Below, piece after piece: positions 5,295 through 64,000 of a stretch of DNA of 64,000 bases (its first letter is position 1; every line of letters begins with the position of its first letter). The stretch is taken from the NCBI RefSeq assembly GCF_044647545.1, contig NZ_CP172818.1, one strand, 5' to 3'. The position numbers and the translations under genes are program-made. The stretch comes from Escherichia coli. Lineage in GTDB: Bacteria; Pseudomonadota; Gammaproteobacteria; Enterobacterales; Enterobacteriaceae. The notes below the pieces were generated by a model that saw only the letters and a program-made list of their open reading frames with translations, did not search any database and was not told the DNA's origin.

Positions 5295-6602
<1,308 letters not shown>

Positions 6603-8871: not shown

Positions 8872-8901
8872 TTAACCATTCCCATACAATTAGTTAACCA
8901 A

Positions 8902-8934
8902 AAAGGGGGGATTTTATCTCCCCTTTAATTTTTC
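8902..8934 (+). terminator. Rho-independent terminator after clpX
   Basis: AAGGGGGGA...TCCCCTT hairpin followed by T-rich tract. Confidence 0.65.
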
Positions 8935-8948
8935 CTCTATTCTCGGCG

Positions 8949-8976
8949 TTGAATGTGGGGGAAACATCCCCATATA
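8949..8976 (+). promoter_or_regulatory. sigma32 heat-shock promoter of lon
   Basis: GTTGAATG (-35 like) ... CCCCATATA (-10 like) with correct spacing; matches sigma32 consensus. Confidence 0.7.
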
Positions 8977-9058
8977 CTGACGTACATGTTAATAGATGGC
9001 GTGAAGCACAGTCGTGTCATCTGATTACCTGGCGGAAATTAAACTAAGAGAGAGCTCT

Positions 9059-26630: not shown

Positions 26631-26744
26631 GGGGGCTCTGTTGGTTCTCCCGCAACGCTACTCTGTTTACCAGGTCAGGTCCGGAAGGAAGCAGCCAAGG
26701 CAGATGACGCGTGTGCCGGGATGTAGCTGGCAGGGCCCCCACCC
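26631..26744 (+). ncRNA. ffs: 4.5S RNA (signal recognition particle RNA)
   Basis: 114 nt GGGGGCTCTGTTGGTTCTCCCGCAACGC...GGCAGGGCCCCCACCC matches the E. coli SRP RNA as I recall it; lies in the atl-ybaA intergenic region. Confidence 0.93.
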
Positions 26745-42102: not shown

Positions 42103-44034
42103 ATGAGTTATCAGGTCTTAGCCCGAAAATGGCGCCCACAAACCTTTGCTGACGTCGTCGGCCAGGAACATGTGCTGACCGCACTGGCGAACGGCTTGTC
42201 GTTAGGGCGTATTCATCATGCTTATCTTTTTTCCGGTACCCGTGGCGTCGGAAAAACCTCTATCGCCCGACTGCTGGCGAAGGGGCTAAACTGCGAAACC
42301 GGCATTACCGCGACGCCGTGCGGCGTGTGCGATAACTGTCGTGAAATCGAGCAGGGGCGCTTTGTCGATCTGATTGAAATCGACGCCGCCTCGCGTACCA
42401 AAGTCGAAGATACCCGCGACCTGCTGGATAACGTCCAGTACGCTCCGGCGCGTGGTCGTTTCAAAGTTTATCTCATCGACGAAGTGCATATGCTGTCGCG
42501 TCACAGCTTTAACGCACTGTTAAAAACCCTTGAAGAGCCGCCAGAGCACGTTAAGTTTTTGCTGGCGACGACCGATCCACAGAAATTGCCGGTGACGATT
42601 TTGTCACGCTGTTTGCAATTTCATCTCAAGGCGCTGGATGTCGAGCAAATTCGCCATCAGCTTGAGCACATCCTCAACGAAGAACATATCGCTCACGAGC
42701 CGCGGGCGTTGCAATTACTGGCGCGCGCCGCTGAAGGCAGCCTGCGAGATGCCTTAAGTCTGACCGACCAGGCGATTGCCAGCGGTGACGGCCAGGTTTC
42801 AACCCAGGCGGTCAGTGCGATGCTGGGTACGCTTGACGACGATCAGGCGCTGTCGCTGGTTGAAGCGATGGTCGAGGCCAACGGCGAGCGCGTAATGGCG
42901 CTGATTAATGAAGCCGCTGCCCGTGGTATCGAGTGGGAAGCGTTGCTGGTGGAAATGCTCGGCCTGTTGCATCGTATTGCGATGGTACAACTTTCGCCTG
43001 CTGCACTTGGCAACGACATGGCCGCCATCGAGCTGCGGATGCGTGAACTGGCGCGCACCATACCGCCGACGGATATTCAGCTTTACTATCAGACGCTGTT
43101 GATTGGTCGCAAAGAATTACCGTATGCGCCGGACCGCCGTATGGGCGTTGAGATGACGCTTCTGCGCGCGCTGGCGTTCCATCCACGTATGCCGCTGCCT
43201 GAGCCAGAAGTGCCACGCCAGTCCTTTGCGCCCGTCGCGCCAACGGCAGTAATGACGCCAACCCAGGTGCCGCCGCAACCGCAATCAGCGCCGCAGCAGG
43301 CACCGACTGTACCGCTCCCGGAAACCACCAGCCAGGTGCTGGCGGCGCGCAAGCAGTTGCAGCGCGTGCAGGGAGCAACCAAAGCAAAAAAGAGTGAACC
43401 GGCAGCCGCTACCCGCGCGCGGCCGGTGAATAACGCTGCGCTGGAAAGACTGGCTTCGGTCACCGATCGCGTTCAGGCGCGCCCGGTGCCATCGGCGCTG
43501 GAAAAAGCGCCAGCCAAAAAAGAAGCGTATCGCTGGAAGGCGACCACTCCAGTGATGCAGCAAAAAGAAGTGGTCGCCACGCCGAAGGCGCTGAAAAAAG
43601 CGCTGGAACATGAAAAAACGCCGGAACTGGCGGCGAAGCTGGCGGCAGAAGCCATTGAGCGCGACCCGTGGGCGGCTCAGGTGAGTCAACTTTCGCTACC
43701 AAAACTGGTCGAACAGGTGGCGTTAAATGCCTGGAAAGAGGAGAGCGACAACGCAGTATGTCTGCATTTGCGCTCCTCTCAGCGGCATTTGAACAACCGC
43801 GGCGCACAGCAAAAACTGGCTGAAGCGTTGAGCACGTTAAAAGGTTCAACGGTTGAACTGACTATCGTTGAAGATGATAATCCCGCGGTGCGTACGCCGC
43901 TGGAATGGCGTCAGGCGATATACGAAGAAAAACTTGCGCAGGCGCGCGAGTCCATTATTGCGGATAATAATATTCAGACCCTGCGTCGATTCTTCGATGC
44001 GGAGCTGGATGAAGAAAGTATCCGCCCCATTTGA
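42103..44034 (+). CDS. dnaX: DNA polymerase III subunits tau (full length) and gamma (via -1 frameshift)
   Basis: 643 aa; AAA+ clamp-loader motifs (GTRGVGKTS); the slippery heptamer inside the ORF is listed separately. Confidence 0.97.
   Translation: MSYQVLARKWRPQTFADVVGQEHVLTALANGLSLGRIHHAYLFSGTRGVGKTSIARLLAKGLNCETGITATPCGVCDNCREIEQGRFVDLIEIDAASRTKVEDTRDLLDNVQYAPARGRFKVYLIDEVHMLSRHSFNALLKTLEEPPEHVKFLLATTDPQKLPVTILSRCLQFHLKALDVEQIRHQLEHILNEEHIAHEPRALQLLARAAEGSLRDALSLTDQAIASGDGQVSTQAVSAMLGTLDDDQALSLVEAMVEANGERVMALINEAAARGIEWEALLVEMLGLLHRIAMVQLSPAALGNDMAAIELRMRELARTIPPTDIQLYYQTLLIGRKELPYAPDRRMGVEMTLLRALAFHPRMPLPEPEVPRQSFAPVAPTAVMTPTQVPPQPQSAPQQAPTVPLPETTSQVLAARKQLQRVQGATKAKKSEPAAATRARPVNNAALERLASVTDRVQARPVPSALEKAPAKKEAYRWKATTPVMQQKEVVATPKALKKALEHEKTPELAAKLAAEAIERDPWAAQVSQLSLPKLVEQVALNAWKEESDNAVCLHLRSSQRHLNNRGAQQKLAEALSTLKGSTVELTIVEDDNPAVRTPLEWRQAIYEEKLAQARESIIADNNIQTLRRFFDAELDEESIRPI
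43386..43397 (+). promoter_or_regulatory. dnaX programmed -1 ribosomal frameshift site (A AAA AAG) with -1 frame stop
   Basis: A_AAA_AAG at 43386-43392 in the correct register of the dnaX frame (codons GCA AAA AAG); -1 frame reads AAA AAA GAG TGA; GC-rich structured region immediately downstream. Confidence 0.85.
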
Positions 44035-49877: not shown

Positions 49878-50028
49878 GCAAAAACTCCTTTCAAATTACG
49901 TCATTGTAAGGAACCACTGCCATGAAAATGCGATCCCGCCTGCTGATATTGAAACTGGCTGCGTCTCGCGCGCTCCCGTCAGATTGTGTTAACATTCGCC
50001 GCTCAGTTAACCACCCGTAAAAACAACC

Positions 50029-51333
50029 ATGAAATTTCCCGGCAAACGTAAATCCAAACATTATTTTCCCGTAAACGCACGCGATCCGCTGCTTCAGCAA
50101 TTCCAGCCAGAAAACGAAACCAGCGCTGCCTGGGTAGTGGGTATCGATCAAACGCTGGTCGATATTGAAGCGAAAGTGGATGATGAATTTATTGAGCGTT
50201 ATGGATTAAGCGCCGGGCATTCACTGGTGATTGAGGATGACGTAGCCGAAGCGCTTTATCAGGAACTAAAACAGAAAAACCTGATTACCCATCAGTTTGC
50301 GGGTGGCACCATTGGTAACACCATGCACAACTACTCGGTGCTCGCGGACGACCGTTCGGTGCTGCTGGGCGTCATGTGCAGCAATATTGAAATTGGCAGC
50401 TATGCCTATCGTTACCTGTGTAACACTTCCAGCCGTACCGATCTTAACTATCTACAAGGCGTGGATGGCCCGATTGGTCGTTGCTTTACGCTGATTGGCG
50501 AGTCCGGGGAACGTACCTTTGCTATCAGCCCCGGCCACATGAACCAGCTGCGGGCTGAAAGTATTCCGGAAGATGTGATTGCCGGAGCCTCGGCTCTGGT
50601 TCTCACCTCTTATCTGGTGCGTTGCAAGCCGGGTGAACCCATGCCGGAAGCAACCATGAAAGCTATTGAGTACGCGAAGAAATATAACGTACCGGTGGTG
50701 CTGACGCTGGGCACCAAGTTTGTCATTGCCGAGAATCCGCAGTGGTGGCAGCAATTCCTCAAAGACCACGTCTCTATCCTTGCGATGAACGAAGATGAAG
50801 CCGAAGCGTTGACCGGAGAAAGCGATCCGTTGTTGGCATCTGACAAGGCGCTGGACTGGGTTGATCTGGTGCTGTGTACCGCAGGGCCAATCGGCTTGTA
50901 TATGGCGGGCTTTACCGAAGACGAAGCGAAACGTAAAACCCAGCATCCGCTGCTGCCGGGTGCTATAGCGGAATTTAACCAGTATGAGTTTAGCCGCGCC
51001 ATGCGCCACAAGGATTGCCAGAATCCGTTGCGTGTCTATTCGCACATTGCGCCGTACATGGGCGGGCCGGAAAAAATTATGAATACCAACGGAGCAGGGG
51101 ATGGCGCACTGGCAGCGTTGCTGCATGACATTACCGCCAACAGCTACCACCGTAGCAACGTACCAAACTCCAGCAAACATAAATTCACCTGGTTAACTTA
51201 TTCATCGTTAGCGCAGGTGTGTAAATATGCTAACCGTGTGAGCTATCAGGTACTGAACCAGCATTCACCTCGTTTAACGCGCGGCTTGCCGGAGCGTGAA
51301 GACAGCCTGGAAGAGTCTTACTGGGATCGTTAA
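50029..51333 (+). CDS. gsk: Inosine-guanosine kinase
   Basis: 434 aa PfkB-like ribokinase-family ORF recognised as Gsk. Confidence 0.95.
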   Translation: MKFPGKRKSKHYFPVNARDPLLQQFQPENETSAAWVVGIDQTLVDIEAKVDDEFIERYGLSAGHSLVIEDDVAEALYQELKQKNLITHQFAGGTIGNTMHNYSVLADDRSVLLGVMCSNIEIGSYAYRYLCNTSSRTDLNYLQGVDGPIGRCFTLIGESGERTFAISPGHMNQLRAESIPEDVIAGASALVLTSYLVRCKPGEPMPEATMKAIEYAKKYNVPVVLTLGTKFVIAENPQWWQQFLKDHVSILAMNEDEAEALTGESDPLLASDKALDWVDLVLCTAGPIGLYMAGFTEDEAKRKTQHPLLPGAIAEFNQYEFSRAMRHKDCQNPLRVYSHIAPYMGGPEKIMNTNGAGDGALAALLHDITANSYHRSNVPNSSKHKFTWLTYSSLAQVCKYANRVSYQVLNQHSPRLTRGLPEREDSLEESYWDR

Positions 51334-51353
51334 GTTATCGACAACCAGAATGG

Positions 51354-51396
51354 CATCCGTAGGCCGGATAAGATGCGTCAGCATCGCATCCGGCAA
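51354..51396. repeat. REP (repetitive extragenic palindromic) element between gsk and ybaL
   Basis: GCATCCGTAGGCCGGATAAGATGCGTCAGCATCGCATCCGGCAATG; typical REP motif GCCGGATAAG...GCATCCGGC. Confidence 0.8.
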
Positions 51397-51409
51397 TGGA
51401 ATCAATGTT

Positions 51410-53086
51410 TTACCCCGTCACCACCTCACCCGCCGGTGGCGTTTCCAGCAGTTCCAGCATAGTACGGGCAATTTCACGCTCACCCATCACTACCTGATTC
51501 GCACCACGTTCGGTGATATACGCCACTTCATCGTCATAATGGGCGCGGGCAATAATCTCAATATCCGGATTTTTCGCGCGGGCAGATGCCACAATCTCGC
51601 CCGCTTCATAACCGTTGGGAATCGTCAGGATCAGCCATTTTGCACATTCCAGATGCGCCAGTTGCATAATTTCTTCGTTCGCCGCATTGCCCAATACTGC
51701 GCGGACCCCGCGCTCTCGCAGTTCATCAACACGGGTTCGTGACGTCTCAATCACCACCAGCGGAATATCAGAGGCGAGCAATTTCTCCCCCAGCAGGCTG
51801 CCTACACGACCGTAACCTACCAGTAGCGCATGGTTGCAAATATCCACTGGGATCTGCTTCTCTTCTTCGATAGCCTCTTCCAGCGTCTGCTCTTCCAGCG
51901 TTTCGGTCTTCGCCAGATATTTCTCCAGCAGCGCAAACAGGACCGGGTTGAGCATAATCGACAAAATCGCCCCTGCCAGTACCAGGTTCTGCCCGGCTTG
52001 CGGCAATAGATCCAGCGCCATGCCCAGTCCCGCCAGGATAAACGCGAACTCACCAATTTGCGCCAGGCTGGCGGCGATAGTTAATGCCGTACGTTGGGAG
52101 TGACCAAACAGTCGCACCAGGAAAAACGCGGCTAACGACTTACCAAACAGAATAATCGCCAGCGTCGCCAGCACTGCCAGCGGTTGCTGAATCAGAATTA
52201 ACGGATCAAACAACATCCCGACGGAGACAAAAAACAGCACCGCAAACGCGTCGCGCAATGGCAGCGTATCGTGGGCGGCACGGTGACTCAGTTCAGACTC
52301 GTTCAGTACCATCCCGGCAAAGAACGCACCGAGTGCAAAGGAGACATCAAACAGCTCCACCGCACCAAAGGCAATCCCTAACGCCAGCGCCAGCACCGAC
52401 AGGGTAAACAGCTCGCGGGAACCGGTTGCTGCGCTACGTGCCATAATCCACGGCACCAGACGGCGACCTACCAGCATCATAATGGCGATAAATGCGATCA
52501 CCTTGCCGATGGTGATCCCCATATCGACAGCAAGAGTGGCAAAGCCCACATCGCCTTGTTCCATCATTCCTGCCACTGCGGGCAGCAACACCAGCGTCAG
52601 AACCATGACCAGGTCTTCCACAATCAACCAACCGATGGCGATTTGCCCACGCTGACTGTCAATTAATTGCCGTTCTTCAAGTGCGCGCAGTAACACCACG
52701 GTACTGGCGGTGGAAAGGCATAAGCCGAACACGATACCGGTCATTAACGACCAGCCCAGCACGGCGGAGAGCGCCATACCCAGCAGCGTAGCCACGGCTA
52801 TCTGGGCGATCGCGCCGGGAATGGCGATGGCCTTTACCGCCATCAAATCCTTGAGCGAAAAGTGCAAACCGACGCCAAACATCAACAGAATGACGCCCAG
52901 TTCAGCCAGTTCCGGCGCAAGCTTGGTATCGGCAACAAAGCCCGGAGTGAATGGTCCTGCCAGCACACCCGCTAACAGATATCCCACCAGAGGAGAAATA
53001 CGTAGTTTATTGGCCAGCATGCCGAGGATAAAGGCGAGCACAAGGCCGCCAACAATGGTGGTGATAAGCGGGGTGGCGTGATGCAT
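51410..53086 (-). CDS. ybaL: CPA2-family monovalent cation:proton antiporter with C-terminal RCK/TrkA-N domain
   Basis: 558 aa; 12-13 TM segments followed by Rossmann-type GYGRVG motif. Confidence 0.93.
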   Translation of the reverse strand: MHHATPLITTIVGGLVLAFILGMLANKLRISPLVGYLLAGVLAGPFTPGFVADTKLAPELAELGVILLMFGVGLHFSLKDLMAVKAIAIPGAIAQIAVATLLGMALSAVLGWSLMTGIVFGLCLSTASTVVLLRALEERQLIDSQRGQIAIGWLIVEDLVMVLTLVLLPAVAGMMEQGDVGFATLAVDMGITIGKVIAFIAIMMLVGRRLVPWIMARSAATGSRELFTLSVLALALGIAFGAVELFDVSFALGAFFAGMVLNESELSHRAAHDTLPLRDAFAVLFFVSVGMLFDPLILIQQPLAVLATLAIILFGKSLAAFFLVRLFGHSQRTALTIAASLAQIGEFAFILAGLGMALDLLPQAGQNLVLAGAILSIMLNPVLFALLEKYLAKTETLEEQTLEEAIEEEKQIPVDICNHALLVGYGRVGSLLGEKLLASDIPLVVIETSRTRVDELRERGVRAVLGNAANEEIMQLAHLECAKWLILTIPNGYEAGEIVASARAKNPDIEIIARAHYDDEVAYITERGANQVVMGEREIARTMLELLETPPAGEVVTG

Positions 53087-53323
53087 TCCGTCTCCTTTTC
53101 CTGGTGGTTATTGTCCATTTTTGGCCGGGAAAACCAAAATTACAGGTAATAGTTTATGACAATTTCATTGATGATGTTTATGAATAATTGTTGAATTTTG
53201 CAGAAAAATGGAATTAGCTGCAAAAAAAGCACGGATCGGAAAACAGAAGGCGGTTTAACAGAGGAAAGGCTTATGGCGACTGTAAAACGATGCAGCCAAA
53301 GTTTGCCTTTGGCTGCAATGAAA

Positions 53324-54544
53324 TCAGTCTTTATGCCGGTTATCAGGCAGGAATATGGTCAACATCCCCAATAGTGGCAGGAAAGCACAGATTTTATAGA
53401 CTAACTCGATGCTGGTGTGATCGGCGATAAGCCCCAGAACTGCCGCTCCCAGACCTCCCATGCCAAAAGCAAAACCGAAAAAGAATCCAGAAACCATACC
53501 GATACGTCCCGGAAGTAGCTCCTGAGCGTAGACCAGAATGGCAGAGAATGCCGAAGCGAGGATAAATCCAATAATCACCGTTAAAACCCCCGTCCAGTGC
53601 AGGCTGGCGTAGGGTAAAATCAGCGTAAACGGCGCAACGCCGAGGATAGAGCCCCAAATCACATATTTCCGTCCAATTTTATCCCCTACAGGCCCGCCGA
53701 TCACCGTACCTGCCGCAACGGCAAACAGGAAGGCAAACAGATGAAGCTGGGCATTCTGGATAGATAATCCGAATTTTTGCATCAGATAAAAGGTGTAATA
53801 GCTGCTGATGCTCGCCATATAGAAATATTTCGAGAAAATGAGGATTAACAGAATGCTGACCGCCAGTACCACTTTGTTGCGCGGCAGTGGATTGATAATC
53901 GTCGCTTTGGGTTTTCCTTTATTCATTCGGTGCTGTGCCGAGTACCAACGGCTGATTTGCGCCAGCACCACGATCGCCAGCAGTGCCGCAAGCACAAACC
54001 AGGCAACGTTGCCTTTGCCATAAGGCGCGATAATCACCGCCGCCAGCAAGGGTCCCAGGGAACTGCCAAAGTTGCCGCCGACCTGAAAGATAGATTGTGC
54101 CAGGCCATGCCGCCCGCCGGACGCCATACGGGCCACGCGAGAAGATTCCGGATGAAAGACCGATGAACCGGTACCGACCAGCGCCGCCGCCAGCAGAACT
54201 GCGCCAAAACTGCCCGCCAGCGCCAGCAGCACCAGACCACTTAAGGTAAAGCACATGCCAATTGGCAACGACCACGGCATCGGATATTTATCGGTCCAGT
54301 AGCCGACAACTGGTTGCAGTAGCGAAGAGGCGAGCTGGAAGGTGAGGGTTATCATGCCAATCTGCATAAATGTCAGAGAAAACTCTGACTGAAGCAGCGG
54401 ATAAATCGCCAGAATCAGCGATTGGATCATGTCGTTCAGCAGATGTGAGAGGCTGATAGCACCTAAAATACCAAACGATGTTCGGGCCTTGGTCGTTGAC
54501 GCAGCCGCGCCCGCCACAGGCTGGGTTTGTTCACTCATTGCCAT
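53324..54544 (-). CDS. fsr: MFS transporter, fosmidomycin resistance protein
   Basis: 406 aa MFS ORF recognised as Fsr. Confidence 0.93.
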   Translation of the reverse strand: MAMSEQTQPVAGAAASTTKARTSFGILGAISLSHLLNDMIQSLILAIYPLLQSEFSLTFMQIGMITLTFQLASSLLQPVVGYWTDKYPMPWSLPIGMCFTLSGLVLLALAGSFGAVLLAAALVGTGSSVFHPESSRVARMASGGRHGLAQSIFQVGGNFGSSLGPLLAAVIIAPYGKGNVAWFVLAALLAIVVLAQISRWYSAQHRMNKGKPKATIINPLPRNKVVLAVSILLILIFSKYFYMASISSYYTFYLMQKFGLSIQNAQLHLFAFLFAVAAGTVIGGPVGDKIGRKYVIWGSILGVAPFTLILPYASLHWTGVLTVIIGFILASAFSAILVYAQELLPGRIGMVSGFFFGFAFGMGGLGAAVLGLIADHTSIELVYKICAFLPLLGMLTIFLPDNRHKD

Positions 54545-54761
54545 AGGAAAGTCACTTTTTCAGGGTTGCGATGTAAAGAATGATCTTATTTGTGATTATT
54601 ACCCGACTAACATACCTGTATGCGCCGCCTGAAGGAAGTCTCAACGCTGAATACAGAATTTCTAATCTGGATGCAGATTTATCTTCACCGGACGCAGACT
54701 TGTCTATGATGTCGCGTCATACTATTTTTCAACACGTTGAAATCAGGTCAGGGAGAGAAGT

Positions 54762-56414
54762 ATGAAATTATTGCAGCGGGGCGTGGCGTTAGCACTGTTA
54801 ACCACATTTACACTGGCGAGTGAAACTGCTCTGGCGTACGAGCAGGATAAAACCTACAAAATTACAGTTCTGCACACCAATGATCATCATGGGCATTTTT
54901 GGCGCAATGAATATGGTGAATATGGTCTGGCGGCGCAAAAAACGCTGGTGGATGGTATCCGCAAAGAGGTTGCGGCTGAAGGCGGTAGCGTGCTGCTACT
55001 TTCCGGTGGCGACATTAACACTGGCGTGCCCGAGTCCGACTTACAGGATGCCGAACCTGATTTTCGCGGTATGAATCTGGTGGGCTATGACGCGATGGCG
55101 ATCGGTAATCATGAATTTGATAACCCGCTCACCGTATTACGCCAGCAGGAAAAGTGGGCTAAGTTCCCGTTGCTTTCCGCCAATATCTACCAGAAAAGTA
55201 CCGGCGAGCGCCTGTTTAAACCATGGGCGCTGTTTAAGCGTCAGGATCTGAAAATTGCCGTTATTGGCCTGACGACGGATGACACAGCCAAAATTGGTAA
55301 TCCGGAATATTTCACTGATATCGAATTTCGTAAGCCCGCTGATGAAGCGAAGCTGGTGATTCAGGAGCTGCAACAGACAGAAAAGCCAGACATTATTATC
55401 GCGGCGACCCATATGGGGCATTACGACAATGGTGAGCACGGCTCTAACGCACCGGGCGATGTGGAGATGGCACGCGCGCTGCCTGCCGGATCGCTGGCGA
55501 TGATCGTCGGTGGTCACTCGCAAGATCCGGTCTGTATGGCGGCAGAAAACAAAAAACAGGTCGATTACGTGCCGGGTACGCCATGCAAACCGGATCAACA
55601 AAACGGCATCTGGATTGTGCAGGCGCATGAGTGGGGCAAATACGTGGGACGGGCTGATTTTGAGTTTCGTAATGGCGAAATGAAAATGGTTAACTACCAG
55701 CTGATTCCGGTGAACCTGAAGAAGAAAGTGACCTGGGAAGACGGGAAAAGCGAGCGCGTGCTGTACACCCCTGAAATCGCTGAAAACCAGCAAATGATCT
55801 CGCTGTTATCACCGTTCCAGAACAAAGGCAAAGCGCAGCTGGAAGTGAAAATAGGCGAAACCAATGGTCGTCTGGAAGGCGATCGTGACAAAGTGCGTTT
55901 TGTACAGACCAATATGGGGCGGTTGATTCTGGCAGCACAAATGGATCGCACTGGTGCCGACTTTGCGGTGATGAGCGGAGGCGGAATTCGTGATTCTATC
56001 GAAGCAGGTGATATCAGCTATAAAAACGTACTGAAAGTGCAGCCATTCGGCAATGTGGTGGTGTATGCCGACATGACCGGTAAAGAGGTGATTGATTACT
56101 TGACCGCCGTCGCGCAGATGAAGCCAGATTCAGGTGCCTACCCGCAATTTGCCAACGTTAGCTTTGTGGCGAAAGACGGTAAACTGAACGACCTGAAAAT
56201 CAAAGGCGAACCGGTCGATCCGGCGAAAACTTACCGCATGGCGACATTAAACTTCAATGCCACCGGCGGGGATGGCTATCCGCGCCTTGATAACAAACCG
56301 GGCTATGTGAATACCGGCTTTATTGATGCCGAAGTGCTGAAAGCGTATATCCAGAAAAGCTCGCCGCTGGATGTGAGTGTTTATGAACCGAAAGGTGAGG
56401 TGAGCTGGCAGTAA
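54762..56414 (+). CDS. ushA: Periplasmic UDP-sugar hydrolase / 5'-nucleotidase
   Basis: 550 aa with signal peptide and metallophosphatase motifs (DHHG, GNHEFD); recognised as UshA. Confidence 0.96.
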   Translation: MKLLQRGVALALLTTFTLASETALAYEQDKTYKITVLHTNDHHGHFWRNEYGEYGLAAQKTLVDGIRKEVAAEGGSVLLLSGGDINTGVPESDLQDAEPDFRGMNLVGYDAMAIGNHEFDNPLTVLRQQEKWAKFPLLSANIYQKSTGERLFKPWALFKRQDLKIAVIGLTTDDTAKIGNPEYFTDIEFRKPADEAKLVIQELQQTEKPDIIIAATHMGHYDNGEHGSNAPGDVEMARALPAGSLAMIVGGHSQDPVCMAAENKKQVDYVPGTPCKPDQQNGIWIVQAHEWGKYVGRADFEFRNGEMKMVNYQLIPVNLKKKVTWEDGKSERVLYTPEIAENQQMISLLSPFQNKGKAQLEVKIGETNGRLEGDRDKVRFVQTNMGRLILAAQMDRTGADFAVMSGGGIRDSIEAGDISYKNVLKVQPFGNVVVYADMTGKEVIDYLTAVAQMKPDSGAYPQFANVSFVAKDGKLNDLKIKGEPVDPAKTYRMATLNFNATGGDGYPRLDNKPGYVNTGFIDAEVLKAYIQKSSPLDVSVYEPKGEVSWQ

Positions 56415-56422
56415 TCCGAAAG

Positions 56423-56446
56423 TGCCGGATGTTCGCATCCGGCACA
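56423..56446. repeat. REP-like hairpin / bidirectional terminator between ushA and ybaK
   Basis: GTGCCGGATG-TTC-GCATCCGGCAC perfect inverted repeat. Confidence 0.7.
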
Positions 56447-56450
56447 ATGC

Positions 56451-56930
56451 TTAATCGCGACGGGCGATATCAGCAAATTTGGCATCGAGTATCTTTGCCA
56501 GGTCGCTTGCCGCCAGTTCGATATCCAGACCGCGCTTGCCGCCGGAAACATAAATAGTGGCAAATTCTTGTGCGGGGGTGTCGATAATCGTTGGCAGACG
56601 TTTTTTCTGCCCCAGTGGGCTAATCCCTCCAACCAGATATCCCGTCGAACGCTGCGCGACCATCGGATCGGCCATCTCAACTTTCTTGGCACCCAGCGCT
56701 TTTGCTACTTTTTTAAGATCCAGTTGACCTGCGACCGGCGTAACGGCCACGGCAAGGTGTTTCATATCACCGTTCACTGCGACCAGCAGCGTTTTGTAGA
56801 CCTGATCCGGATTCAAACCTAATTTTTTGACGACTTCATCGCCAAAATTGGTTTCAGCCGGATCGTGCTCGTAGGTGTGGATTTGAAACGAAATCTTGTT
56901 TTTTTCGAGTAATTTAACTGCGGGTGTCAT
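56451..56930 (-). CDS. ybaK: Cys-tRNA(Pro)/Cys-tRNA(Cys) deacylase (YbaK/ProX editing domain)
   Basis: 159 aa ORF recognised as YbaK. Confidence 0.94.
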
Positions 56931-57051
56931 GGTAATTTTCCTGCCTTAAACAAAAAAACGAAGCAAGCATACGCCTGATGGCGGTCCAAAAAAAAGAGTC
57001 ATCTTGCCTAAGAGTATTGGCAGGATGGTGAGATTGAGCGACAATCGAGTT

Positions 57052-57135
57052 ACACCGTCGCTTAAAGTGACGGCATAATAATAAAAAAATGAAATTCCTC
57101 TTTGACGGGCCAATAGCGATATTGGCCATTTTTTT
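57052..57135 (+). ncRNA. chiX: ChiX small regulatory RNA (Hfq-dependent; MicM/SroB)
   Basis: 84 nt ACACCGTCGCTTAAAGTGACGGCATAATAATAAAAAAATGAAATTCCTCTTTGACGGGCCAATAGCGATATTGGCCATTTTTTT, 5' hairpin plus intrinsic terminator; matches ChiX as I recall it; in the ybaK-ybaP gap. Confidence 0.88.
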
Positions 57136-57928
57136 AGCGCAACATCTGCGGCAAATTCCCTTCTCCATACAGGTGTAGTGCACCAACCGCGACCACATAT
57201 CGCCCCGGCGGCATGGCGCGTAATTTGTCCCGCCAGGCGAGATTTCGCTGATGCATCAGCACATCGTACAGCGACTGACTGAACGTATTAGGCAGCGTTA
57301 TTTCATTATTTTGTGGCGGTGTATTCAGCCACCAGCTCATCATTTGTTGCAGCAACCGTGCGTTGGTGTGCCAGTGGGTCAGCGTATCGTCCAGCAGCGC
57401 CAGTCCGTTGTCAGGGAGCTGGAGCAACATGGCAATCTGGTTTTCTGCCCCTTCCAGTTCAATCACGGGTTTATGTTGTTGCTTCGCCGCCTGCAATAGC
57501 TGGTAATCGATACCGTATTCTGCCCGCAGCCCCAGTTTTTGTGCCTGCGTCGCCTGAAGAACCATCGCGATTTGCCACAGCGGTTGGGTAGAAAAGAGTG
57601 AGGTAGAAATGCCCATCTCCTGGCTAATGTGCTGCAGGTTTTGTAATTGCTCCTCGCTAATGCGCTCTTCCAGCGCCTCGCAGGCAGGCAAATTAGCAAA
57701 AGGCGTATCGCTGGTGGAAACATCCGCCTCGACGATCAGCGCATCGGCGTTTTTGAGCTTTTTGAGCAAACGGGTGGGCAGGGGAGCCATATCGTGGCTA
57801 CCCATATGAATACTGCCGAGCAGATGAAAATGGCGATTGCCGGGAAGAGAGATATCGATAGCAGGCCAGGTGTAATGATTACCGCGCAGCGCGGCCCAAA
57901 GCGTTTTTACCCGATACAACAGATCCAT
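57134..57928 (-). CDS. ybaP: TraB/GumN family protein
   Basis: 264 aa ORF recognised as YbaP; its stop codon overlaps the chiX terminator T-tract by 2 nt. Confidence 0.9.
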   Translation of the reverse strand: MDLLYRVKTLWAALRGNHYTWPAIDISLPGNRHFHLLGSIHMGSHDMAPLPTRLLKKLKNADALIVEADVSTSDTPFANLPACEALEERISEEQLQNLQHISQEMGISTSLFSTQPLWQIAMVLQATQAQKLGLRAEYGIDYQLLQAAKQQHKPVIELEGAENQIAMLLQLPDNGLALLDDTLTHWHTNARLLQQMMSWWLNTPPQNNEITLPNTFSQSLYDVLMHQRNLAWRDKLRAMPPGRYVVAVGALHLYGEGNLPQMLR

Positions 57929-58186
57929 ACGACCTCCCTTTGTGAAATATCATGCTAGCGCGCGGGGAGGGATGGCGCAAATGGAGTTGTTGTCGCACTT
58001 GTGCACAGTGCTTGTGTGCATTACAATAATTAAACAATGGACAAGGAGATGAGAATGGAATGGCTCAAAAGAATAATATAAGGAGTTTTCGTGATCCTGC
58101 TGGCTGATTTTTTTTTCCATTCAACCCCACATCAAAAAATCCCTCTAAAATCCATACCACTTATCACAAAAGTGGACATCATTAAT

Positions 58187-58346
58187 CCCCCCCCTTCTCT
58201 CCGTTTTCCCCCCCCCCCGAAACGAAAAAAAAAGTTTTGGAAAAAAAAAGAAATTTCCCCAAAAAAAAAAAAAAAAAAAAAAAAAAATAAAAAAGGGAAA
58301 AAAAAAAAGGAAAAAAAATTTTTTTAAAAAAAAAAAAAAAAAAAAA
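58187..58346. repeat. Homopolymer-rich low-complexity block (C8, C11, A9, A9, A27, A11, A8, T7, A21) upstream of ybaQ
   Basis: Directly visible in the sequence; composition unlike any other part of the window. See findings. Confidence 0.95.
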
Positions 58347-58379
58347 CATAGCTGTCGTATTGACGAGAAAGGTAAAACC

Positions 58380-58751
58380 ATGAAACAGGCAACAAGAAAA
58401 CCGACGACACCCGGAGATATTCTTCTCTATGAATATCTGGAACCGCTCGATTTGAAAATCAATGAGTTAGCAGAGTTACTGCATGTTCATCGTAATAGCG
58501 TCAGTGCACTGATCAATAATAATCGTAAACTCACCACTGAAATGGCATTCCGTCTGGCGAAAGTTTTTGATACCACAGTCGATTTTTGGCTAAACCTCCA
58601 GGCGGCAGTTGATCTTTGGGAAGTTGAAAACAACATGCGTACCCAGGAAGAATTGGGACGGATTGAAACAGTGGCTGAATATTTGGCACGCCGTGAAGAG
58701 CGTGCAAAAAAGGTCGCGTATATGCGCCACCCTAAAGCAGTGCATCCGTAA
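58380..58751 (+). CDS. ybaQ: XRE-family HTH protein, HigA-like putative antitoxin
   Basis: 123 aa ORF with central HTH (LKINELAELLHVHRNSVSALINN); recognised as YbaQ; start taken from the track, and my recollection of the annotated length (113 aa) is not reconciled with this ORF. Confidence 0.85.
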   Translation: MKQATRKPTTPGDILLYEYLEPLDLKINELAELLHVHRNSVSALINNNRKLTTEMAFRLAKVFDTTVDFWLNLQAAVDLWEVENNMRTQEELGRIETVAEYLARREERAKKVAYMRHPKAVHP

Positions 58752-58759
58752 TGATGTAC

Positions 58760-61264
58760 TTATTCCTTCGGTTTAAATCGCAGCAATCGGTTGGCGTTAC
58801 TCACTACGGTAATCGACGAGAGCGCCATTGCCGCTCCGGCAACCACCGGGTTAAGCAGCGTACCGGTGAACGGCCACAAAATACCGGCGGCGACCGGAAT
58901 ACCAATGCTGTTGTAGATAAACGCACCGAGCAGGTTCTGCTTCATATTGCGCAGCGTTGCGCGGGAAATCGCGAGCGCATCTGCAACACCCATCAGGCTA
59001 TGGCGCATCAGGGTAATCGCCGCGGTTTCAATGGCAACATCACTGCCGCCACCCATCGCAATACCGACATCCGCCTGAGCCAGCGCTGGCGCGTCGTTAA
59101 TGCCGTCGCCCACCATTGCCACCTGACGTCCTTCACTTTGCAGACGTTTGATCGCTTCGGCTTTACCGTCCGGTAGCACCCCGGCTATCACCTCATCAAT
59201 CCCTGCTTCTTTGGCGATCGCATTGGCGGTGGTTGGGTTATCCCCGGTTAGCATCACCAGACGATATCCCGCTTTATGCAGGCGTTGCAGCGCCGCCACG
59301 CTATCACTACGCAACGGATCGCGTACAGCCAGCAGGGCTACCGCTTTCCCGTCAACCGCCAGCAGCACAGGCGTTGCCCCTTGCGATGCCTGAGCTGAAA
59401 TATCTGCCTCAATCGCTTTAGTATCAACTTGCTGGTCATTTAACAGCGCCTGATTACCCAGCAATAACGCATGACCTTCAGCTTCACCGCTCACGCCCAG
59501 CCCGCGCAATGTGCGGAAACCGTTGACCTGCGGCAGCTGCATATCACCTGCTTTATCGAGGATCGCTCGTGCCAGCGGATGGCTGGAACCTTGCTCCAGT
59601 GCCGCCGCCAGACGCAATGCCTGCGCTTCATCAACATCAGCAAACGTTTTCACTGCGACAACCTGCGGCTTCCCTTCGGTCAGCGTCCCGGTTTTATCGA
59701 ACACGACGGTGTCGAGCGTACTGGCGCGTTGCAGCGCGTCAGCGTCCCGCACCAGCACGCCAAACTCAGCCGCCCGCCCGACGCCCGAAATAATCGACAT
59801 CGGCGTCGCCAGTCCCAGCGCACACGGACAGGCAATAATCAGCACCGTGGTGGCAATCACCAGGGTATAGACAATTTGCGGTGCCGGACCAAAGAAATAC
59901 CAGATTGCCGCACTGACAAGCGCAATAACCACTACTACCGGCACAAATACGGCTGAGATTTTATCCGCCAGTTGACCGATTTCTGGCTTGCTGCTCTGGG
60001 CCTGTCGCACCATGCGAATGATCCGTGACAGCGTAGTATGGCTGCCGACCGCACTGGCGCGAAACAGCACACTGCCGTCCTGTACCACTGTCCCGGCATG
60101 GACGCTATCGCCTTCGCCTTTTTGCTGCGGGATTGGTTCGCCCGTCAGCATCGCTTCATCCAGCCACGCTTCGCCCTGGGTAATTTCACCATCTACCGGC
60201 ACCCGATCACCCGTCGTCAGGCGCAGCAACATACCTGGCTGAACATCTGCCAGCGGCACGTTTTTTTCACCTTCGTTGGTGACCAGGCGCGCCGTCGGTG
60301 GGGTTAAATCGAGTAATTTCTCCAGCGCCTTAGAAGAACGCTGACGTGCGCGCGCTTCCAGCATATGACCGAGATTAATCAGACCGATAATCATCGCACT
60401 GGCTTCATAGTAAAGATGTCGCGCTTCCATCGGGAACCACTGCGGCCACAGGTTGACGCTCATTGAATAGAGCCACGCCACGCCCGTACCCAGCGCCACC
60501 AGCGTATCCATCGTCGCTGCACCGTTCAGCAGGCTTTTCCATGCGCTGCGGTAAAAATGGCCGCCGGCGAAAACCATTACCGCCAGGGTTATCAGGCCGA
60601 TAACCAACCACAGGCTGCGGTTGTCGGCGGTGACCATCATGTTATCGCCGATCATCCCCCAGACCATCACCGGGATACCCACCGCCAGTGCGACAATCGC
60701 CTGCCAGCGGAAGCGCTTCATCGTAGCGACGGCGGTTTCTTGCTGGCGCTCGCGGCGTTTAGCGTCATCTTCAATCGCTTCCGCGCCGTAGCCCGCTTTT
60801 TCCACCGCCTGCACTAAATCTTGTGGGGAGGCACTGCCCATCACCAGCGCAGTACGCTCCGCCAGGTTTACCCGTGCCTGAGTGACGCCCGGTACGCTTT
60901 GCAACGCATTTTGTACGCGGGTGACACAGCTGGCGCAGCTCATGCCGCTCAGCAGCAACTGCTGGCTGTCATCGTCATCGGCGGTCGCTGCCGGAAGCGC
61001 CTCAGAAACCGCTGTCAGTGCTTCCGACGGGATTGATGACTCCGCCAGCGGTTTAGCCTTTGGGTGGCTTACAGATGCGTCATAACCCGCTTGTTTGATG
61101 GTTTCGATCAGCTGTTCTGCACTGGCAGTCCCGGTAACGTGCGCTTCAGTGACAGACACATCCGCCTGCTCAACATCCGGGCGCTGTTCGAGACTTTCTT
61201 TCACGCGTTTAACGCAGTGACCGCAGGACAGGCCGTCCAGGGTCAGGTCGATAGTTTGTGACAT
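58760..61264 (-). CDS. copA: Cu(I)-exporting P1B-type ATPase
   Basis: 834 aa; two N-terminal CxxC metal-binding domains (GLSCGHC, GMSCASC), CPC in TM6, DKTGT phosphorylation motif. Confidence 0.97.
61057..61063 (-). promoter_or_regulatory. Candidate copA programmed -1 frameshift heptamer (C CCA AAG) yielding the CopA(Z) chaperone
   Basis: Minus-strand CCCAAAG at codons His-Pro-Lys (HPKAKPL), about codon 69-70, directly after the first metal-binding domain; placement follows the published CopA(Z) frameshift as I recall it. Confidence 0.6.
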
Positions 61265-61303
61265 AAAACACTCCTTTTAAGACAGTTTTGACTGGCTGTG
61301 ATA

Positions 61304-61334
61304 AAGGTTAAACCTTCCAGCAAGGGGAAGGTCA
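61304..61334 (-). promoter_or_regulatory. copA promoter with CueR box (MerR-type, 19-bp spacer)
   Basis: Minus strand reads TTGACC-N19-TAACCT; the spacer contains the dyad CCTTCC-N7-GGAAGG (61312-61330). Confidence 0.85.
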
Positions 61335-61526
61335 AGAAATTAATAAACCAGGCGGGTAAAAGTACGTAAAGATTAAAAAATCGGCTCGATTTGCATCAGG
61401 ATTAGACATTTATCTCTTTGTTTTCCTGTAGTTAAGTTGCGGGTGCTAAGTTAAATCAGGATGCCTGAAAATTGGCACCGGGGTGAGGAATTACCTCCCG
61501 CATCTATAAAAAGGAGTTAACAAAAG

Positions 61527-62459
61527 ATGTTAGATGCAAACAAATTACAGCAGGCAGTGGATCAGGCTTACACCCAATTTCACTCACTTAACGGCGGACA
61601 AAATGCCGACTACATTCCCTTTCTGGCGAATGTACCTGGTCAACTGGCAGCAGTGGCTATTGTGACCTGCGATGGCAACATCTATCGCGCGGGTGATAGT
61701 GATTACCGCTTTGCGCTGGAATCCATCTCGAAAGTCTGTACGTTAGCCCTTGCGTTAGAAGATGTCGGCCCGCAGGCGGTACAGGACAAAATTGGCGCTG
61801 ACCCGACCGGATTGCCCTTTAACTCAGTTATCGCCTTAGAGTTGCATGGCGGCAAACCGCTGTCGCCACTGGTAAATGCTGGCGCTATTGCCACCACCAG
61901 CCTGATTAACGCTGAAAATACTGAACAACGCTGGCAGCGAATTTTACATATCCAACAACAACTGGCTGGTGAGCAGGTAGCGCTCTCTGACGAAGTCAAC
62001 CAGTCGGAACAAACAACCAACTTCCATAACCGGGCCATTGCCTGGCTGCTGTACTCCGCCGGATATCTCTATTGTGATGCAATGGAAGCCTGTGACGTGT
62101 ACACCCGTCAGTGCTCCACGCTCATCAATACTGTTGAACTGGCAACGCTTGGCGCGACGCTGGCGGCGGGTGGTGTGAATCCGCTGACGCATAAACGCGT
62201 TCTTCAGGCCGACAACGTGCCGTACATTCTGGCTGAAATGATGATGGAAGGGCTGTATGGTCGCTCCGGTGACTGGGCGTATCGCGTTGGTTTACCGGGC
62301 AAAAGCGGTGTAGGTGGCGGTATTCTGGCGGTCGTCCCTGGCGTGATGGGAATTGCCGCGTTCTCACCACCGCTGGACGAAGAAGGCAACAGTGTTCGCG
62401 GTCAAAAAATGGTGGCATCGGTCGCTAATCAACTCGGCTATAACGTGTTTAAGGGCTGA
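61527..62459 (+). CDS. glsA: Glutaminase 1
   Basis: 310 aa serine-dependent glutaminase ORF recognised as GlsA/YbaS. Confidence 0.95.
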   Translation: MLDANKLQQAVDQAYTQFHSLNGGQNADYIPFLANVPGQLAAVAIVTCDGNIYRAGDSDYRFALESISKVCTLALALEDVGPQAVQDKIGADPTGLPFNSVIALELHGGKPLSPLVNAGAIATTSLINAENTEQRWQRILHIQQQLAGEQVALSDEVNQSEQTTNFHNRAIAWLLYSAGYLYCDAMEACDVYTRQCSTLINTVELATLGATLAAGGVNPLTHKRVLQADNVPYILAEMMMEGLYGRSGDWAYRVGLPGKSGVGGGILAVVPGVMGIAAFSPPLDEEGNSVRGQKMVASVANQLGYNVFKG

Positions 62460-62461
62460 TC

Positions 62462-63754
62462 ATGATGAACACGGAAGGTAATAACGATAACAAACCCCTC
62501 GGTCTATGGAACGTCGTTTCCATCGGTATTGGGGCAATGGTGGGGGCGGGGATCTTCGCGCTGCTGGGGCAGGCTGCGTTGCTAATGGAAGCCTCGACCT
62601 GGGTCGCCTTTGCTTTTGGCGGTATTGTGGCGATGTTTTCCGGTTATGCCTATGCGCGCCTGGGGGCGAGCTATCCCAGCAATGGCGGTATTATCGACTT
62701 CTTTCGTCGCGGATTAGGCAACGGCGTCTTTTCGCTGGCACTCTCGTTATTGTACCTGTTGACGCTGGCGGTGAGCATCGCCATGGTCGCCCGTGCTTTT
62801 GGCGCTTATGCCGTGCAGTTTTTGCATGAAGGCAGTCAGGAGGAGCACCTTATATTGCTCTACGCGTTGGGGATCATTGCGGTGATGACGCTTTTCAACT
62901 CCTTAAGCAACCATGCGGTAGGGCGGCTGGAAGTGATCCTCGTCGGCATTAAAATGATGATCCTGTTATTGCTGATCATTGCCGGTGTCTGGTCGCTGCA
63001 ACCGGCGCATATTTCCGTCTCTGCGCCCCCCAGCTCCGGTGCGTTCTTCTCCTGTATCGGGATAACCTTCCTTGCCTATGCGGGCTTTGGCATGATGGCG
63101 AACGCGGCGGATAAAGTGAAAGATCCGCAGGTCATTATGCCACGGGCGTTTCTGGTGGCGATTGGCGTTACCACGTTGCTTTATATCTCGCTGGCGCTGG
63201 TTTTGCTTAGCGATGTATCGGCATTAGAGTTAGAAAAATATGCCGATACCGCCGTAGCGCAGGCAGCTTCTCCGCTGCTCGGGCATGTGGGTTATGTGAT
63301 CGTCGTCATCGGCGCTTTACTGGCGACGGCTTCAGCCATCAACGCGAACCTGTTCGCCGTGTTTAACATCATGGACAACATGGGCAGCGAACGCGAACTG
63401 CCGAAGCTAATGAATAAATCCCTGTGGCGGCAGAGTACCTGGGGCAACATCATTGTCGTGGTGCTGATTATGCTGATGACGGCGGCGCTGAATTTAGGCT
63501 CACTCGCCAGCGTTGCCAGCACCACCTTTTTGATCTGCTATCTGGCGGTGTTTGTGGTGGCGATCCGCCTACGTCATGATATTCACGCCTCGTTGCCGAT
63601 TCTTATCGTTGGTACGTTGGTGATGTTGTTGGTGATCGTTGGCTTTATCTACAGCCTGTGGTCCCAGGGCAGCCGTGCGTTGATATGGATTATTGGTGCA
63701 ATCTTACTCAGCCTTATTGTGGCAATGGTCATGAAGCGCAATAAAACCGTATAA
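62462..63754 (+). CDS. ybaT: APC-superfamily amino acid transporter (putative)
   Basis: 430 aa, about 12 TM segments; starts 3 nt after the glsA stop (operon). Confidence 0.92.
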   Translation: MMNTEGNNDNKPLGLWNVVSIGIGAMVGAGIFALLGQAALLMEASTWVAFAFGGIVAMFSGYAYARLGASYPSNGGIIDFFRRGLGNGVFSLALSLLYLLTLAVSIAMVARAFGAYAVQFLHEGSQEEHLILLYALGIIAVMTLFNSLSNHAVGRLEVILVGIKMMILLLLIIAGVWSLQPAHISVSAPPSSGAFFSCIGITFLAYAGFGMMANAADKVKDPQVIMPRAFLVAIGVTTLLYISLALVLLSDVSALELEKYADTAVAQAASPLLGHVGYVIVVIGALLATASAINANLFAVFNIMDNMGSERELPKLMNKSLWRQSTWGNIIVVVLIMLMTAALNLGSLASVASTTFLICYLAVFVVAIRLRHDIHASLPILIVGTLVMLLVIVGFIYSLWSQGSRALIWIIGAILLSLIVAMVMKRNKTV

Positions 63755-63878
63755 CATCTCTCTGTGCGCAGTACTTCCTGTATTATTGTGGTGGCGGTCG
63801 ATATTCGCACTGGCAAAAAAACGTGCTTGAATATTTGTTGAAACCCTTTAACAAAGCACAGGAGGCGTTGCGCGAACG

Positions 63879-64000
63879 ATGAACATTAGCGATGTAGCAA
63901 AAATTACCGGCCTGACCAGCAAAGCCATTCGCTTCTATGAAGAGAAGGGGCTGGTGACGCCGCCGATGCGCAGCGAAAACGGTTATCGCACCTACACGCA
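63879..64000 (+). CDS. cueR: MerR-family copper-responsive regulator CueR, N-terminal part (continues beyond window end)
   Basis: [40 protein letters not shown], a MerR-type HTH; truncated by the window edge. Confidence 0.9.

Follow-up and report, generated by a model that had tools for sequence, protein, structure and literature searches.

The small RNA gene chiX and its overlap with the stop codon of the convergent gene ybaP in Escherichia coli

GadY-gadX is a described case of an Hfq-binding small RNA (sRNA) gene that lies tail-to-tail with a protein gene, and in that pair both the pairing with the gadX 3' UTR and the processing that results from it have been demonstrated. In a published model, convergent gene pairs terminate through head-on collisions, which are positioned by a hairpin unlike that of an intrinsic terminator (10.1101/2022.10.23.513370); bidirectional, collision-dependent terminators are attributed there to Ju et al. 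(2019, as described in 10.1101/2022.10.23.513370). A third form of opposing transcription is the pervasive antisense transcription that is suppressed by Rho (Peters et al., 2012, as cited in PMC7815308).

ChiX (also SroB, MicM or RybC) is a Class II Hfq sRNA, which binds both the proximal and the distal face of Hfq, and is expressed without specific induction, with chiP strongly repressed (10.1101/2021.08.13.456236). It is countered by a decoy in the chbBC intergenic region and by ChiZ, a sponge derived from chiP (PMC7815308). ChiX makes up about 5.3 million of the 8.15 million fragments recorded for a single Hfq RIL-seq library (PMC10954441, Supp. Data 2).

The window analyzed here is a stretch of 64,000 nucleotides from E. 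coli (RefSeq assembly GCF_044647545.1, contig NZ_CP172818.1). From its letters alone, the original prediction had placed ChiX between ybaK and ybaP and considered transcriptional interference or antisense effects between the chiX and ybaP transcripts, which are plausible. According to the present analysis, the feature is very probably chiX, the gene for an 84-nt Hfq-dependent Class II sRNA, with an overlap with ybaP that amounts to passive packing.

Identity and organization of chiX

A search of window positions 50000-64000 with Rfam cmscan returned a single match, sroB (RF00368), at 57052-57135 on the plus strand. The match is full length (model positions 1-83 of 83) and scores 82.1 bits (E = 3.9e-11), where the gathering score of the family is 44 bits. 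The matched sequence is ACACCGTCGCTTAAAGTGACGGCATAATAATAAAAAAATGAAATTCCTCTTTGACGGGCCAATAGCGATATTGGCCATTTTTTT. Window positions 56931-57145 are 100% identical to 507083-507297 of K-12 MG1655, in which RefSeq annotates the ncRNA chiX (b4585) at 507204..507287 (+) and ybaP at 507286..508080 (-), giving the same 2-nt overlap. ChiX and its overlap with ybaP are therefore already known, as the overlap is present in the reference annotation. The identification as ChiX and the size of 84 nt, both of which had been predicted, are thus confirmed by the covariance model and by the K-12 gene, and neither outcome that would have spoken against them, a lack of any Rfam hit or of a plus-strand transcript, occurred, such a transcript being documented for the identical K-12 sequence. 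The predicted end at 57136 is one base too far, since the A at this position belongs to the ybaP stop codon only. PGAP annotation of genomes has no chiX, the sRNA being simply omitted. The features of the locus are collected in Table 1.

Table 1. Features of the ybaK-chiX-ybaP locus in window coordinates.
Feature	Position	Strand	Description and basis
ybaK	56451-56930	-	Cys-tRNA(Pro) deacylase; same strand as ybaP, downstream of chiX on that strand; Pfam PF04073
chiX sigma-70 promoter	57017-57045	+	-35 TTGGCA 57017-57022, 17-bp spacer, -10 GACAAT 57040-57045; promoter scan
chiX sRNA (ChiX = SroB/MicM/RybC)	57052-57135	+	84 nt; Rfam RF00368, K-12 identity, Term-seq 3' end
5' stem-loop CCGUCGCUUAAAGUGACGG	57055-57073	+	8 bp; fold
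A/U-rich linker CAUAAUAAUAAAAAAAUG	57074-57091	+	(ARN)n repeats; presumed Hfq distal-face site
Seed UCCUCUUUGACGGG	57096-57109	+	Pairs with chiP 5' UTR and chbB-chbC intergenic decoy; exact K-12 complements
Rho-independent terminator	57108-57135	+	8-bp hairpin with GCGA loop (57108-57127), one A, U7 (57129-57135)
ybaP	57134-57928	-	264 aa, TraB/GumN family, convergent with chiX; ORF, Pfam PF01963, RefSeq
ybaP stop codon TAA	57134-57136	-	Shares two bases with the ChiX T-tract, namely the final two T's
ChiX read-through, antisense to ybaP 3' end	57136-57316	+	Ends in Rho-dependent region; PMC7815308 supp. file 2

The gene is strongly conserved. Among 5426 complete E. coli genomes, 5422 contain a single copy of a 136-nt stretch comprising the promoter, the sRNA and the stop codon, and 5213 of these 5422 carry it at 99% identity or more. 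Outside the species, ten diverse orthologous loci that range from Salmonella to Proteus all pass the sroB gathering score.

The promoter found by the promoter scan (TTGGCA-17-GACAAT) ends 6 nt before the first base of ChiX, with the transcription start, an A at 57052, assigned from the annotated K-12 start (507204). In a comparison of 22 Enterobacteriaceae, the block TTTGAGCGACAAT, which holds the -10 element, is invariant and TTGGCA is nearly invariant; scans of the Enterobacter and Klebsiella loci found the same promoter hexamers and the same terminator. The spacer between ybaK and ybaP hence contains a plus-strand promoter of its own, opposite to both genes, while transcription from it is known from the literature. 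In K-12, where the sequence is identical, Term-seq places a 3' end at 507287 (+), corresponding to window position 57135, the last U of ChiX (PMC7815308 supp. file 1). Its scores in three growth conditions are 445,279, 552,306, and 955,394, and the neighbouring ushA 3' end has a score of about 1,400 (PMC7815308). The end at 507287 (+) is classed as "primary" for chiX and "antisense" for ybaP (PMC7815308).

The position of the element at the 3' end of ybaP, and nothing more, would suit a different reading, namely that it is no sRNA gene and merely forms the terminator or some 3' structure of ybaP, or that the hairpin arose by chance. The U-tract, however, lies on the plus strand, opposite to ybaP, and the covariance-model match over its full length is accompanied by a conserved promoter. 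Together with the gene annotated in K-12 and the plus-strand 3' end mapped by Term-seq, the match refutes this reading, to which we assign practically no probability.

The predicted fold of ChiX (-24.1 kcal/mol, z = -3.9 relative to shuffles) consists of a stem-loop at the 5' end and a terminator hairpin that precedes U7. The terminator scan called the latter as GGCCAATAGCGATATTGGCC (57108-57127) plus ATTTTTTT, with a hairpin energy of -12.4 kcal/mol. A 5' hairpin and an intrinsic terminator had both been foreseen, and they agree with the fold, with the scan and with the Term-seq end in K-12, which also answers the proposal to map the 3' end at this site. When 107 ChiX variants were aligned with MAFFT and folded with RNAalifold, only the terminator helix was recovered. 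The 5' hairpins differ too much for an alignment, and the sequences were therefore folded one by one; a 5' hairpin of at least 5 bp is kept in 102 of the 107 distinct orthologues, with 85 different sequences. In the 5' hairpin, it is the structure that is conserved and not the sequence.

Between the two hairpins lie the linker and the seed. ARN triplet repeats begin at ChiX positions 26 and 29, and this (ARN)n pattern suggests that the linker is the binding site for the distal face of Hfq. For the seed, only contiguous exact complements were used, as RNAduplex over-extends ChiX-target duplexes when intramolecular structure is left out. On this basis, UCCUCUUUGACG in ChiX is an exact 12-nt complement of CGUCAAAGAGGA in the K-12 chiP 5' UTR, just upstream of the AUG, and CUCUUUGACGGG is an exact 12-nt complement of CCCGUCAAAGAG in the K-12 chbB-chbC spacer. 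The sequence AAAUUCCUCUUUGAC is kept in all orthologues retrieved, but it had also been included in the pattern used to find them. All testable features that define ChiX/SroB are present in the element at 57052-57135.

These features outline how the sRNA works. The conserved sigma-70 promoter drives ChiX without a specific inducer; its U-tail binds the proximal face of Hfq and its (ARN)n linker presumably serves the distal face. The single-stranded seed UCCUCUUUGACGGG pairs with the ribosome-binding region of chiP mRNA, by which the chitoporin is silenced, and pairing of the chbBC decoy and of the sponge ChiZ with ChiX relieves the silencing of chiP.

The shared bases of chiX and ybaP across Enterobacterales

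As predicted, ChiX sits in the gap between ybaK and ybaP, which measures 203 nt between the two ORFs, and its T-tract overlaps the ybaP stop codon by 2 nt on the opposite strand: the bases common to the T-tract (57129-57135) and the stop codon are exactly 57134-57135. The stop codon closely follows a conserved domain, as the Pfam TraB_PrgY_gumN match in YbaP (PF01963, 150 bits) covers residues 30-264 and so reaches the last residue.

The distribution of the overlap was followed in species-representative genomes, which were scanned once with AAATTCCTCTTTGACNGGCC and gave at least 120 loci, nearly all from Enterobacterales. In nearly all of these loci (at least 120) among the matches listed, tblastn found the order ybaK(-)/chiX(+)/ybaP(-). 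In 116 loci among the matches listed, it was possible to measure how far the ybaP stop lies from the final T of the T-tract. Among those matches, 87 of 116 species have the exact 2-nt overlap (TAA) and 4 of 116 share a single nucleotide (TGA), so that 91 of 116 overlap by 1-2 nt. The remaining loci listed comprise 5 of 116 in which the ybaP ORF extends 20 or 90 nt into chiX, each with a G instead of an A after the T-tract, 19 of 116 with a gap of 3 to 230 nt, and 1 of 116 (Proteus) in which chiX and ybaP are not adjacent. An overlapping species is included in 35 of 45 genus-level groups among the matches listed. These counts come from a sample restricted by an exact search pattern, in which the species are not phylogenetically independent. 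The descriptive novelty is limited to this pattern, in which the ChiX U-tract contributes the ybaP stop codon in about three quarters of the sampled Enterobacterales species.

The C-terminus of YbaP varies within this fixed junction. After the conserved GNLPxxL motif, the tail has 1 to 6 residues, yet the stop stays on the TAA of the T-tract. For instance, YbaP ends in ...PQMLR* in E. coli, ...MLKKG* in Cedecea, ...MLQPQG* in Serratia, ...LLRADNQ* in Yersinia pestis, and ...MLKARQT* in strain RIT691. The sequences are best interpreted as a tail-to-tail overlap that was probably ancestral in Enterobacterales, with an abutment that has no spacer.

A joint constraint on two abutting features would be sufficient to conserve such an overlap, and function is not required for it. 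The T's would be fixed by ChiX termination and by Hfq binding, and the T-tract plus the following A would provide the ybaP stop codon. YbaP would accept changes only if they keep the frame, since both alternative frames stay open far into chiX, as is visible in the five loci in which the ybaP ORF runs 20 or 90 nt into the sRNA gene. The overlap would thus probably be compact packing under joint constraint and no dedicated regulatory device. Its retention across about 35 genus-level groups could also reflect selection for function. Tight convergent junctions such as that of chiX and ybaP are not unusual, and across the whole genome 99 Term-seq ends carry the label "primary" as well as the label "antisense" (PMC7815308). 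At the same locus, the 3' end of the ushA mRNA (K-12 506602) abuts the ybaK stop codon (506603), which is a further tight convergent junction.

Transcription from both sides of the junction

On the minus strand, no terminator was called after the ybaP stop codon, either in the scans of this locus or in those of the Enterobacter and Klebsiella loci. Within K-12 506900-507499, the three Term-seq conditions hold no 3' end besides 507287 (+), and no minus-strand end. With neither a terminator nor a 3' end on this strand, any ybaP mRNA that includes its stop codon must extend into sequence complementary to ChiX. The relevant point at this junction is therefore that the ybaP 3' UTR is necessarily antisense to ChiX, and not that the annotated features overlap by 2 nt. 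A minus-strand 3' end could also be hidden by low expression of ybaP.

Where ybaP transcripts end may be considered in terms of three candidates. The first, by analogy with what has been proposed for convergent pairs, is termination that depends on collision and on the hairpin. The hairpin of the ChiX terminator is close to a palindrome and forms in minus-strand RNA as well, where it is preceded by A7; it is then followed by CGUCAAAGAGGAAUUUCA before any run of U's. Because the minus-strand hairpin has no adjoining U-tract, the element falls outside the definition of a bidirectional intrinsic terminator. The mark of a collision-type terminator, mapped 3' ends of both transcripts flanking one hairpin, is likewise not seen, as there is a plus-strand end only. 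The second candidate is a weak minus-strand hairpin from 57027 to 57000 with a U8 tract from 56995 to 56988, overlapping the -35 region of chiX (-9.7 kcal/mol, z = -1.6). This hairpin and its U8 (57027-56988) are present in some genera only, and the Enterobacter and Klebsiella scans did not call them; being weak and restricted in this way, the site was set aside as the ybaP terminator and kept merely as a lead. The third candidate is read-through towards ybaK, although ybaK may have its own promoter. A conserved minus-strand TATGCT at 56971 to 56966, which precedes the ybaK start by 36 to 41 nt, suggests such a promoter from the sequence. A terminator-like site on the minus strand at 56977 to 56964 was rejected, as it falls in the conserved block reading TATGCT and is more likely the -10 element of ybaK.

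Head-on collision could make more of the junction than a passive one. Dense traffic of RNA polymerase on chiX, together with the hairpin, would stop the polymerases coming from ybaP, giving collision-assisted bidirectional termination, and chiX would be the effective 3' boundary of ybaP, insulating ybaK, which has its own promoter. The minus-strand form of the near-palindromic hairpin with its preceding A7, the want of a U-tract terminator belonging to ybaP, the extremely strong transcription of ChiX, the published model for convergent pairs (10.1101/2022.10.23.513370) and the TATGCT that suggests an independent ybaK promoter are all consistent with this. The minus-strand 3' ends that are the defining signature of such terminators are, however, missing beside the hairpin in Term-seq, and the chiX-ybaP pair is not named in the papers on such terminators that were examined. 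Moreover, a polymerase that is terminating ChiX would block ybaP polymerases before they reach the stop codon, which predicts non-stop transcripts and not clean termination. Collision-assisted termination is therefore rather unlikely as an account of the locus.

On the plus strand, some transcription does continue beyond the ChiX terminator. A region of Rho-dependent termination lies at K-12 507468 (+), which is window position 57316 and antisense to ybaP (PMC7815308). Coverage downstream/upstream of this site is 22/1492 in untreated cells and 115/2100 with bicyclomycin, with a Rho score of 3.71 (p = 4e-10; PMC7815308 supp. file 2). Since this Rho region downstream of the terminator lies antisense to ybaP, a ChiX read-through antisense RNA exists, which gives the suggested interference or antisense effects indirect support. 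The C/G ratio in 57136-57236 is 1.5. A small fraction of ChiX transcription accordingly leaks into ybaP in antisense direction, with Rho stopping the leak about 180 nt downstream. Given the abundance of ChiX, a terminator leak of 1-5% could exceed the ybaP mRNA.

The antisense tail on one strand and the read-through RNA on the other raise the question of functional cis-antisense coupling, in which the ybaP 3' UTR pairs with ChiX, or the ChiX read-through pairs with ybaP mRNA. Coupling would mean either that ChiX controls the stability of ybaP (and ybaK) mRNA through RNase III, or that ybaP transcription lowers ChiX as a perfect decoy, like the chbBC spacer. It would draw on the missing canonical minus-strand terminator between the ybaP stop and chiX, on the read-through antisense RNA that is limited by Rho inside ybaP, on the wide conservation of the chiX-ybaP layout, and on the minus-strand sequence CCCGUCAAAGAGGAAUUUCAU, which closely resembles the known chbBC decoy CCCGUCAAAGAGUUAUUUCAU. 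In addition, RIL-seq tables, including those of PMC10954441, list a minus-strand entity named "ybaP.EST3UTR" at 507215-507289 (-), which occurs in roughly 70 table rows and is represented by about 9,800 fragments. Its chimeras with ArcZ, Spot 42, and SdsR have low odds, and the partners in them keep their sense strand (RIL-seq tables).

This entity was rejected as proof of an anti-ChiX RNA: it amounts to about 0.2% of the ChiX signal, its chimeras with abundant sRNAs have low odds (1.5 to 2.6), and the RIL-seq authors themselves relabel it as ChiX. A simple strand flip does not fit as its source, since the partner RNAs keep their sense strand; it is either a library artefact or a real anti-ChiX RNA. 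Further evidence against coupling comes from the three Term-seq conditions, which contain no minus-strand 3' end in K-12 506900-507499, and from the abutment itself, which is lost in about a fifth of the species among the matches listed. Titration of ChiX is unlikely, given its vast excess over any ybaP transcript. Neither the data nor the searchable literature showed an effect in either direction between ChiX and ybaP. Taken together, functional coupling is improbable.

In its strongest form, coupling would make chiX a gene nested antisense in the ybaP 3' UTR or the ybaP-ybaK spacer, with pairing that matters, and would make the pinning of the stop codon to the U-tract a selected trait; this too we hold to be quite doubtful. 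If it were true, heavy transcription of chiX and pairing by ChiX would define or destabilize the ybaP 3' end, truncated or non-stop ybaP transcripts might arise, ybaK would be insulated, and ybaP transcription would act as a perfect decoy for ChiX. The most likely reading of the junction is passive compact packing with a minor read-through that is policed by Rho.

Significance and comparison with known systems

As it stands, the finding matters little, ChiX being among the best-studied sRNAs of enterobacteria. What it adds is that ybaP has no recognizable terminator, so that any complete ybaP mRNA carries an anti-ChiX tail. If this tail or collisions affected the levels of ybaP, ybaK or ChiX, a cis-antisense layer would be placed on a model trans-acting sRNA, and the locus would become a natural test case for collision-based termination.

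Compared with ChiX of K-12 (b4585), the promoter, the 5' hairpin, the ARN linker, the seed and the terminator all match, as do the flanking genes ybaK and ybaP in their order and the 2 nt shared with the stop codon of ybaP, and no difference was found. The strain does differ from K-12 elsewhere, being 99.9% identical over 1.6 kb to FDAARGOS_497 and to other non-K-12 strains (ECONIH1, ST648).

Like GadY and gadX, ChiX and ybaP lie tail-to-tail, so that the ybaP 3' UTR and the sRNA would be fully complementary. Unlike gadX, ybaP has no 3' UTR mapped by Term-seq and no reported effect in the searchable literature, and the established targets of ChiX, chiP and the chbBC decoy, are trans-encoded. 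The locus shares with the collision-dependent terminators of Ju et al. a convergent pair, a hairpin-encoding element at the boundary, and one direction that is without a U-tract. It differs from them in that no 3' end in the ybaP direction is detected by Term-seq in K-12, and in that an sRNA unit of 84 nt, which ends in a canonical intrinsic terminator, is one of the two partners. Finally, as with the pervasive antisense transcription suppressed by Rho, the ChiX read-through is antisense to a coding gene and rises when Rho is inhibited. Its source, on the other hand, is a leak from the terminator of a strong and genuine sRNA gene, and not a spurious intragenic promoter.

Possible transcripts and ybaP coding sequence opposite ChiX

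A minus-strand entity opposite ChiX is listed in Hfq RIL-seq tables as "ybaP.EST3UTR", at K-12 507215-507289 (-), which corresponds to window 57063-57137 (-) (PMC10954441). This entity occurs as RNA1 in approximately 70 table rows, with partners that include ArcZ, Spot 42, and SdsR, and its signal amounts to about 0.2% of that of ChiX (PMC10954441). The RIL-seq authors relabelled it ChiX. A simple strand flip does not account for it, because the partner RNAs are on their own sense strand.

A minus-strand hairpin followed by a U-run overlaps the chiX -35 region, and from its sequence could be a candidate terminator for ybaP located beyond chiX. In a between-genus comparison, Enterobacter, Silvania, and Pseudenterobacter carry a stronger version of the hairpin, followed by AUUUUUU (-14.7 to -15.8 kcal/mol), and Klebsiella carries a weaker one (-10.5 to -11.8 kcal/mol); no version was found in Salmonella or Kluyvera. 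No known 3' end falls at the hairpin in published K-12 Term-seq.

The coding sequence of ybaP itself extends into chiX at some loci. A G directly follows the T-tract in L026 and in the four loci of the -17 class (L041, L048, L066, and L094), which together come from Kosakonia, Phytobacter, and two further Enterobacteriaceae. In the -17 class, this G lets the ybaP open reading frame cross the A run (the T-tract on the ybaP strand) and enter the ChiX terminator stem. The read-through YbaP tail is ...QKNGQ*, and the coding overlap with the sRNA is 20 nt. At one Phytobacter locus, the overlap of ybaP with chiX reaches 90 nt.

Features of the window, with other Rfam matches
Feature	Position	Strand	Basis or remark
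sraA sRNA	8892-8987	-	Rfam, 106.7 bits
small SRP RNA ffs	26639-26735	+	Rfam, 68.1 bits
dnaX ribosomal frameshift element	43367-43431	+	Rfam, 96.8 bits
conserved block AGCATACGCC	56966-56975		AGCATA part nearly invariant
A run	56988-56995		57 to 64 nt upstream of chiX start
hairpin CAUC.CUGCC...GGCA.AGAUG, then ACUC + U8	56988-57027	-	overlaps chiX -35 region
homopolymer-rich low-complexity patch	58098-58346	+	sequence composition

The ybaK side of the locus

Between ybaK and chiX, the AGCATA of the conserved block corresponds to a minus-strand TATGCT, which precedes the start codon of ybaK by 36 to 41 nt. As judged from its sequence and position, this hexamer is probably part of a ybaK promoter, arranged back-to-back with that of chiX. 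The nearby A run, which is A8 in E. coli and A6 in most other genera, may serve as an UP element for the ybaK promoter, the chiX promoter, or both.

At its other end, ybaK forms a second convergent junction with zero spacer at the chiX-ybaP locus. The ushA mRNA 3' end lies at K-12 506602 (window 56450) (PMC7815308), directly adjoining the ybaK stop codon (K-12 506603-506605; junction at window 56450-56453).

Outlying matches and the ybaQ region

Among the matches listed in the genome scan, only L060 (Candidatus Lindowbacteria MAG, 5396-5415) lacks a proteobacterial label; L039, labelled "Proteobacteria bacterium," has an Enterobacter-like ChiX, ybaP, and ybaK. Neither a T-tract nor a ybaP or ybaK homologue was found beside the L060 match. 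Since about two matches to the scan pattern are expected by chance (19 specified bases, 298 Gb), L060 is probably a chance match or contamination.

The low-complexity patch upstream of ybaQ, which encodes a HigA-family antitoxin, has a GC content of 0.25-0.34 and includes runs of A (up to ~30) and of C (8 to 11, with one spaced C run of 15). In FDAARGOS_497, the closest relative, this position is occupied by a HigB-like toxin gene of the RelE/ParE family, a short way upstream of ybaQ. In alignment with this relative, the patch looks as though its bases had been "smeared" into the preceding ones. Such a pattern suggests an artefact of base calling or assembly in the source genome rather than biology. 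When the locus is compared with K-12, the toxin gene is wholly absent there. Past ybaQ, K-12 carries ~260 nt of repeated sequence, missing from both the window and FDAARGOS_497, whose units end in GCCGGATAAGGCG or CGCATCCGGCA and are read as putative REP-like elements.
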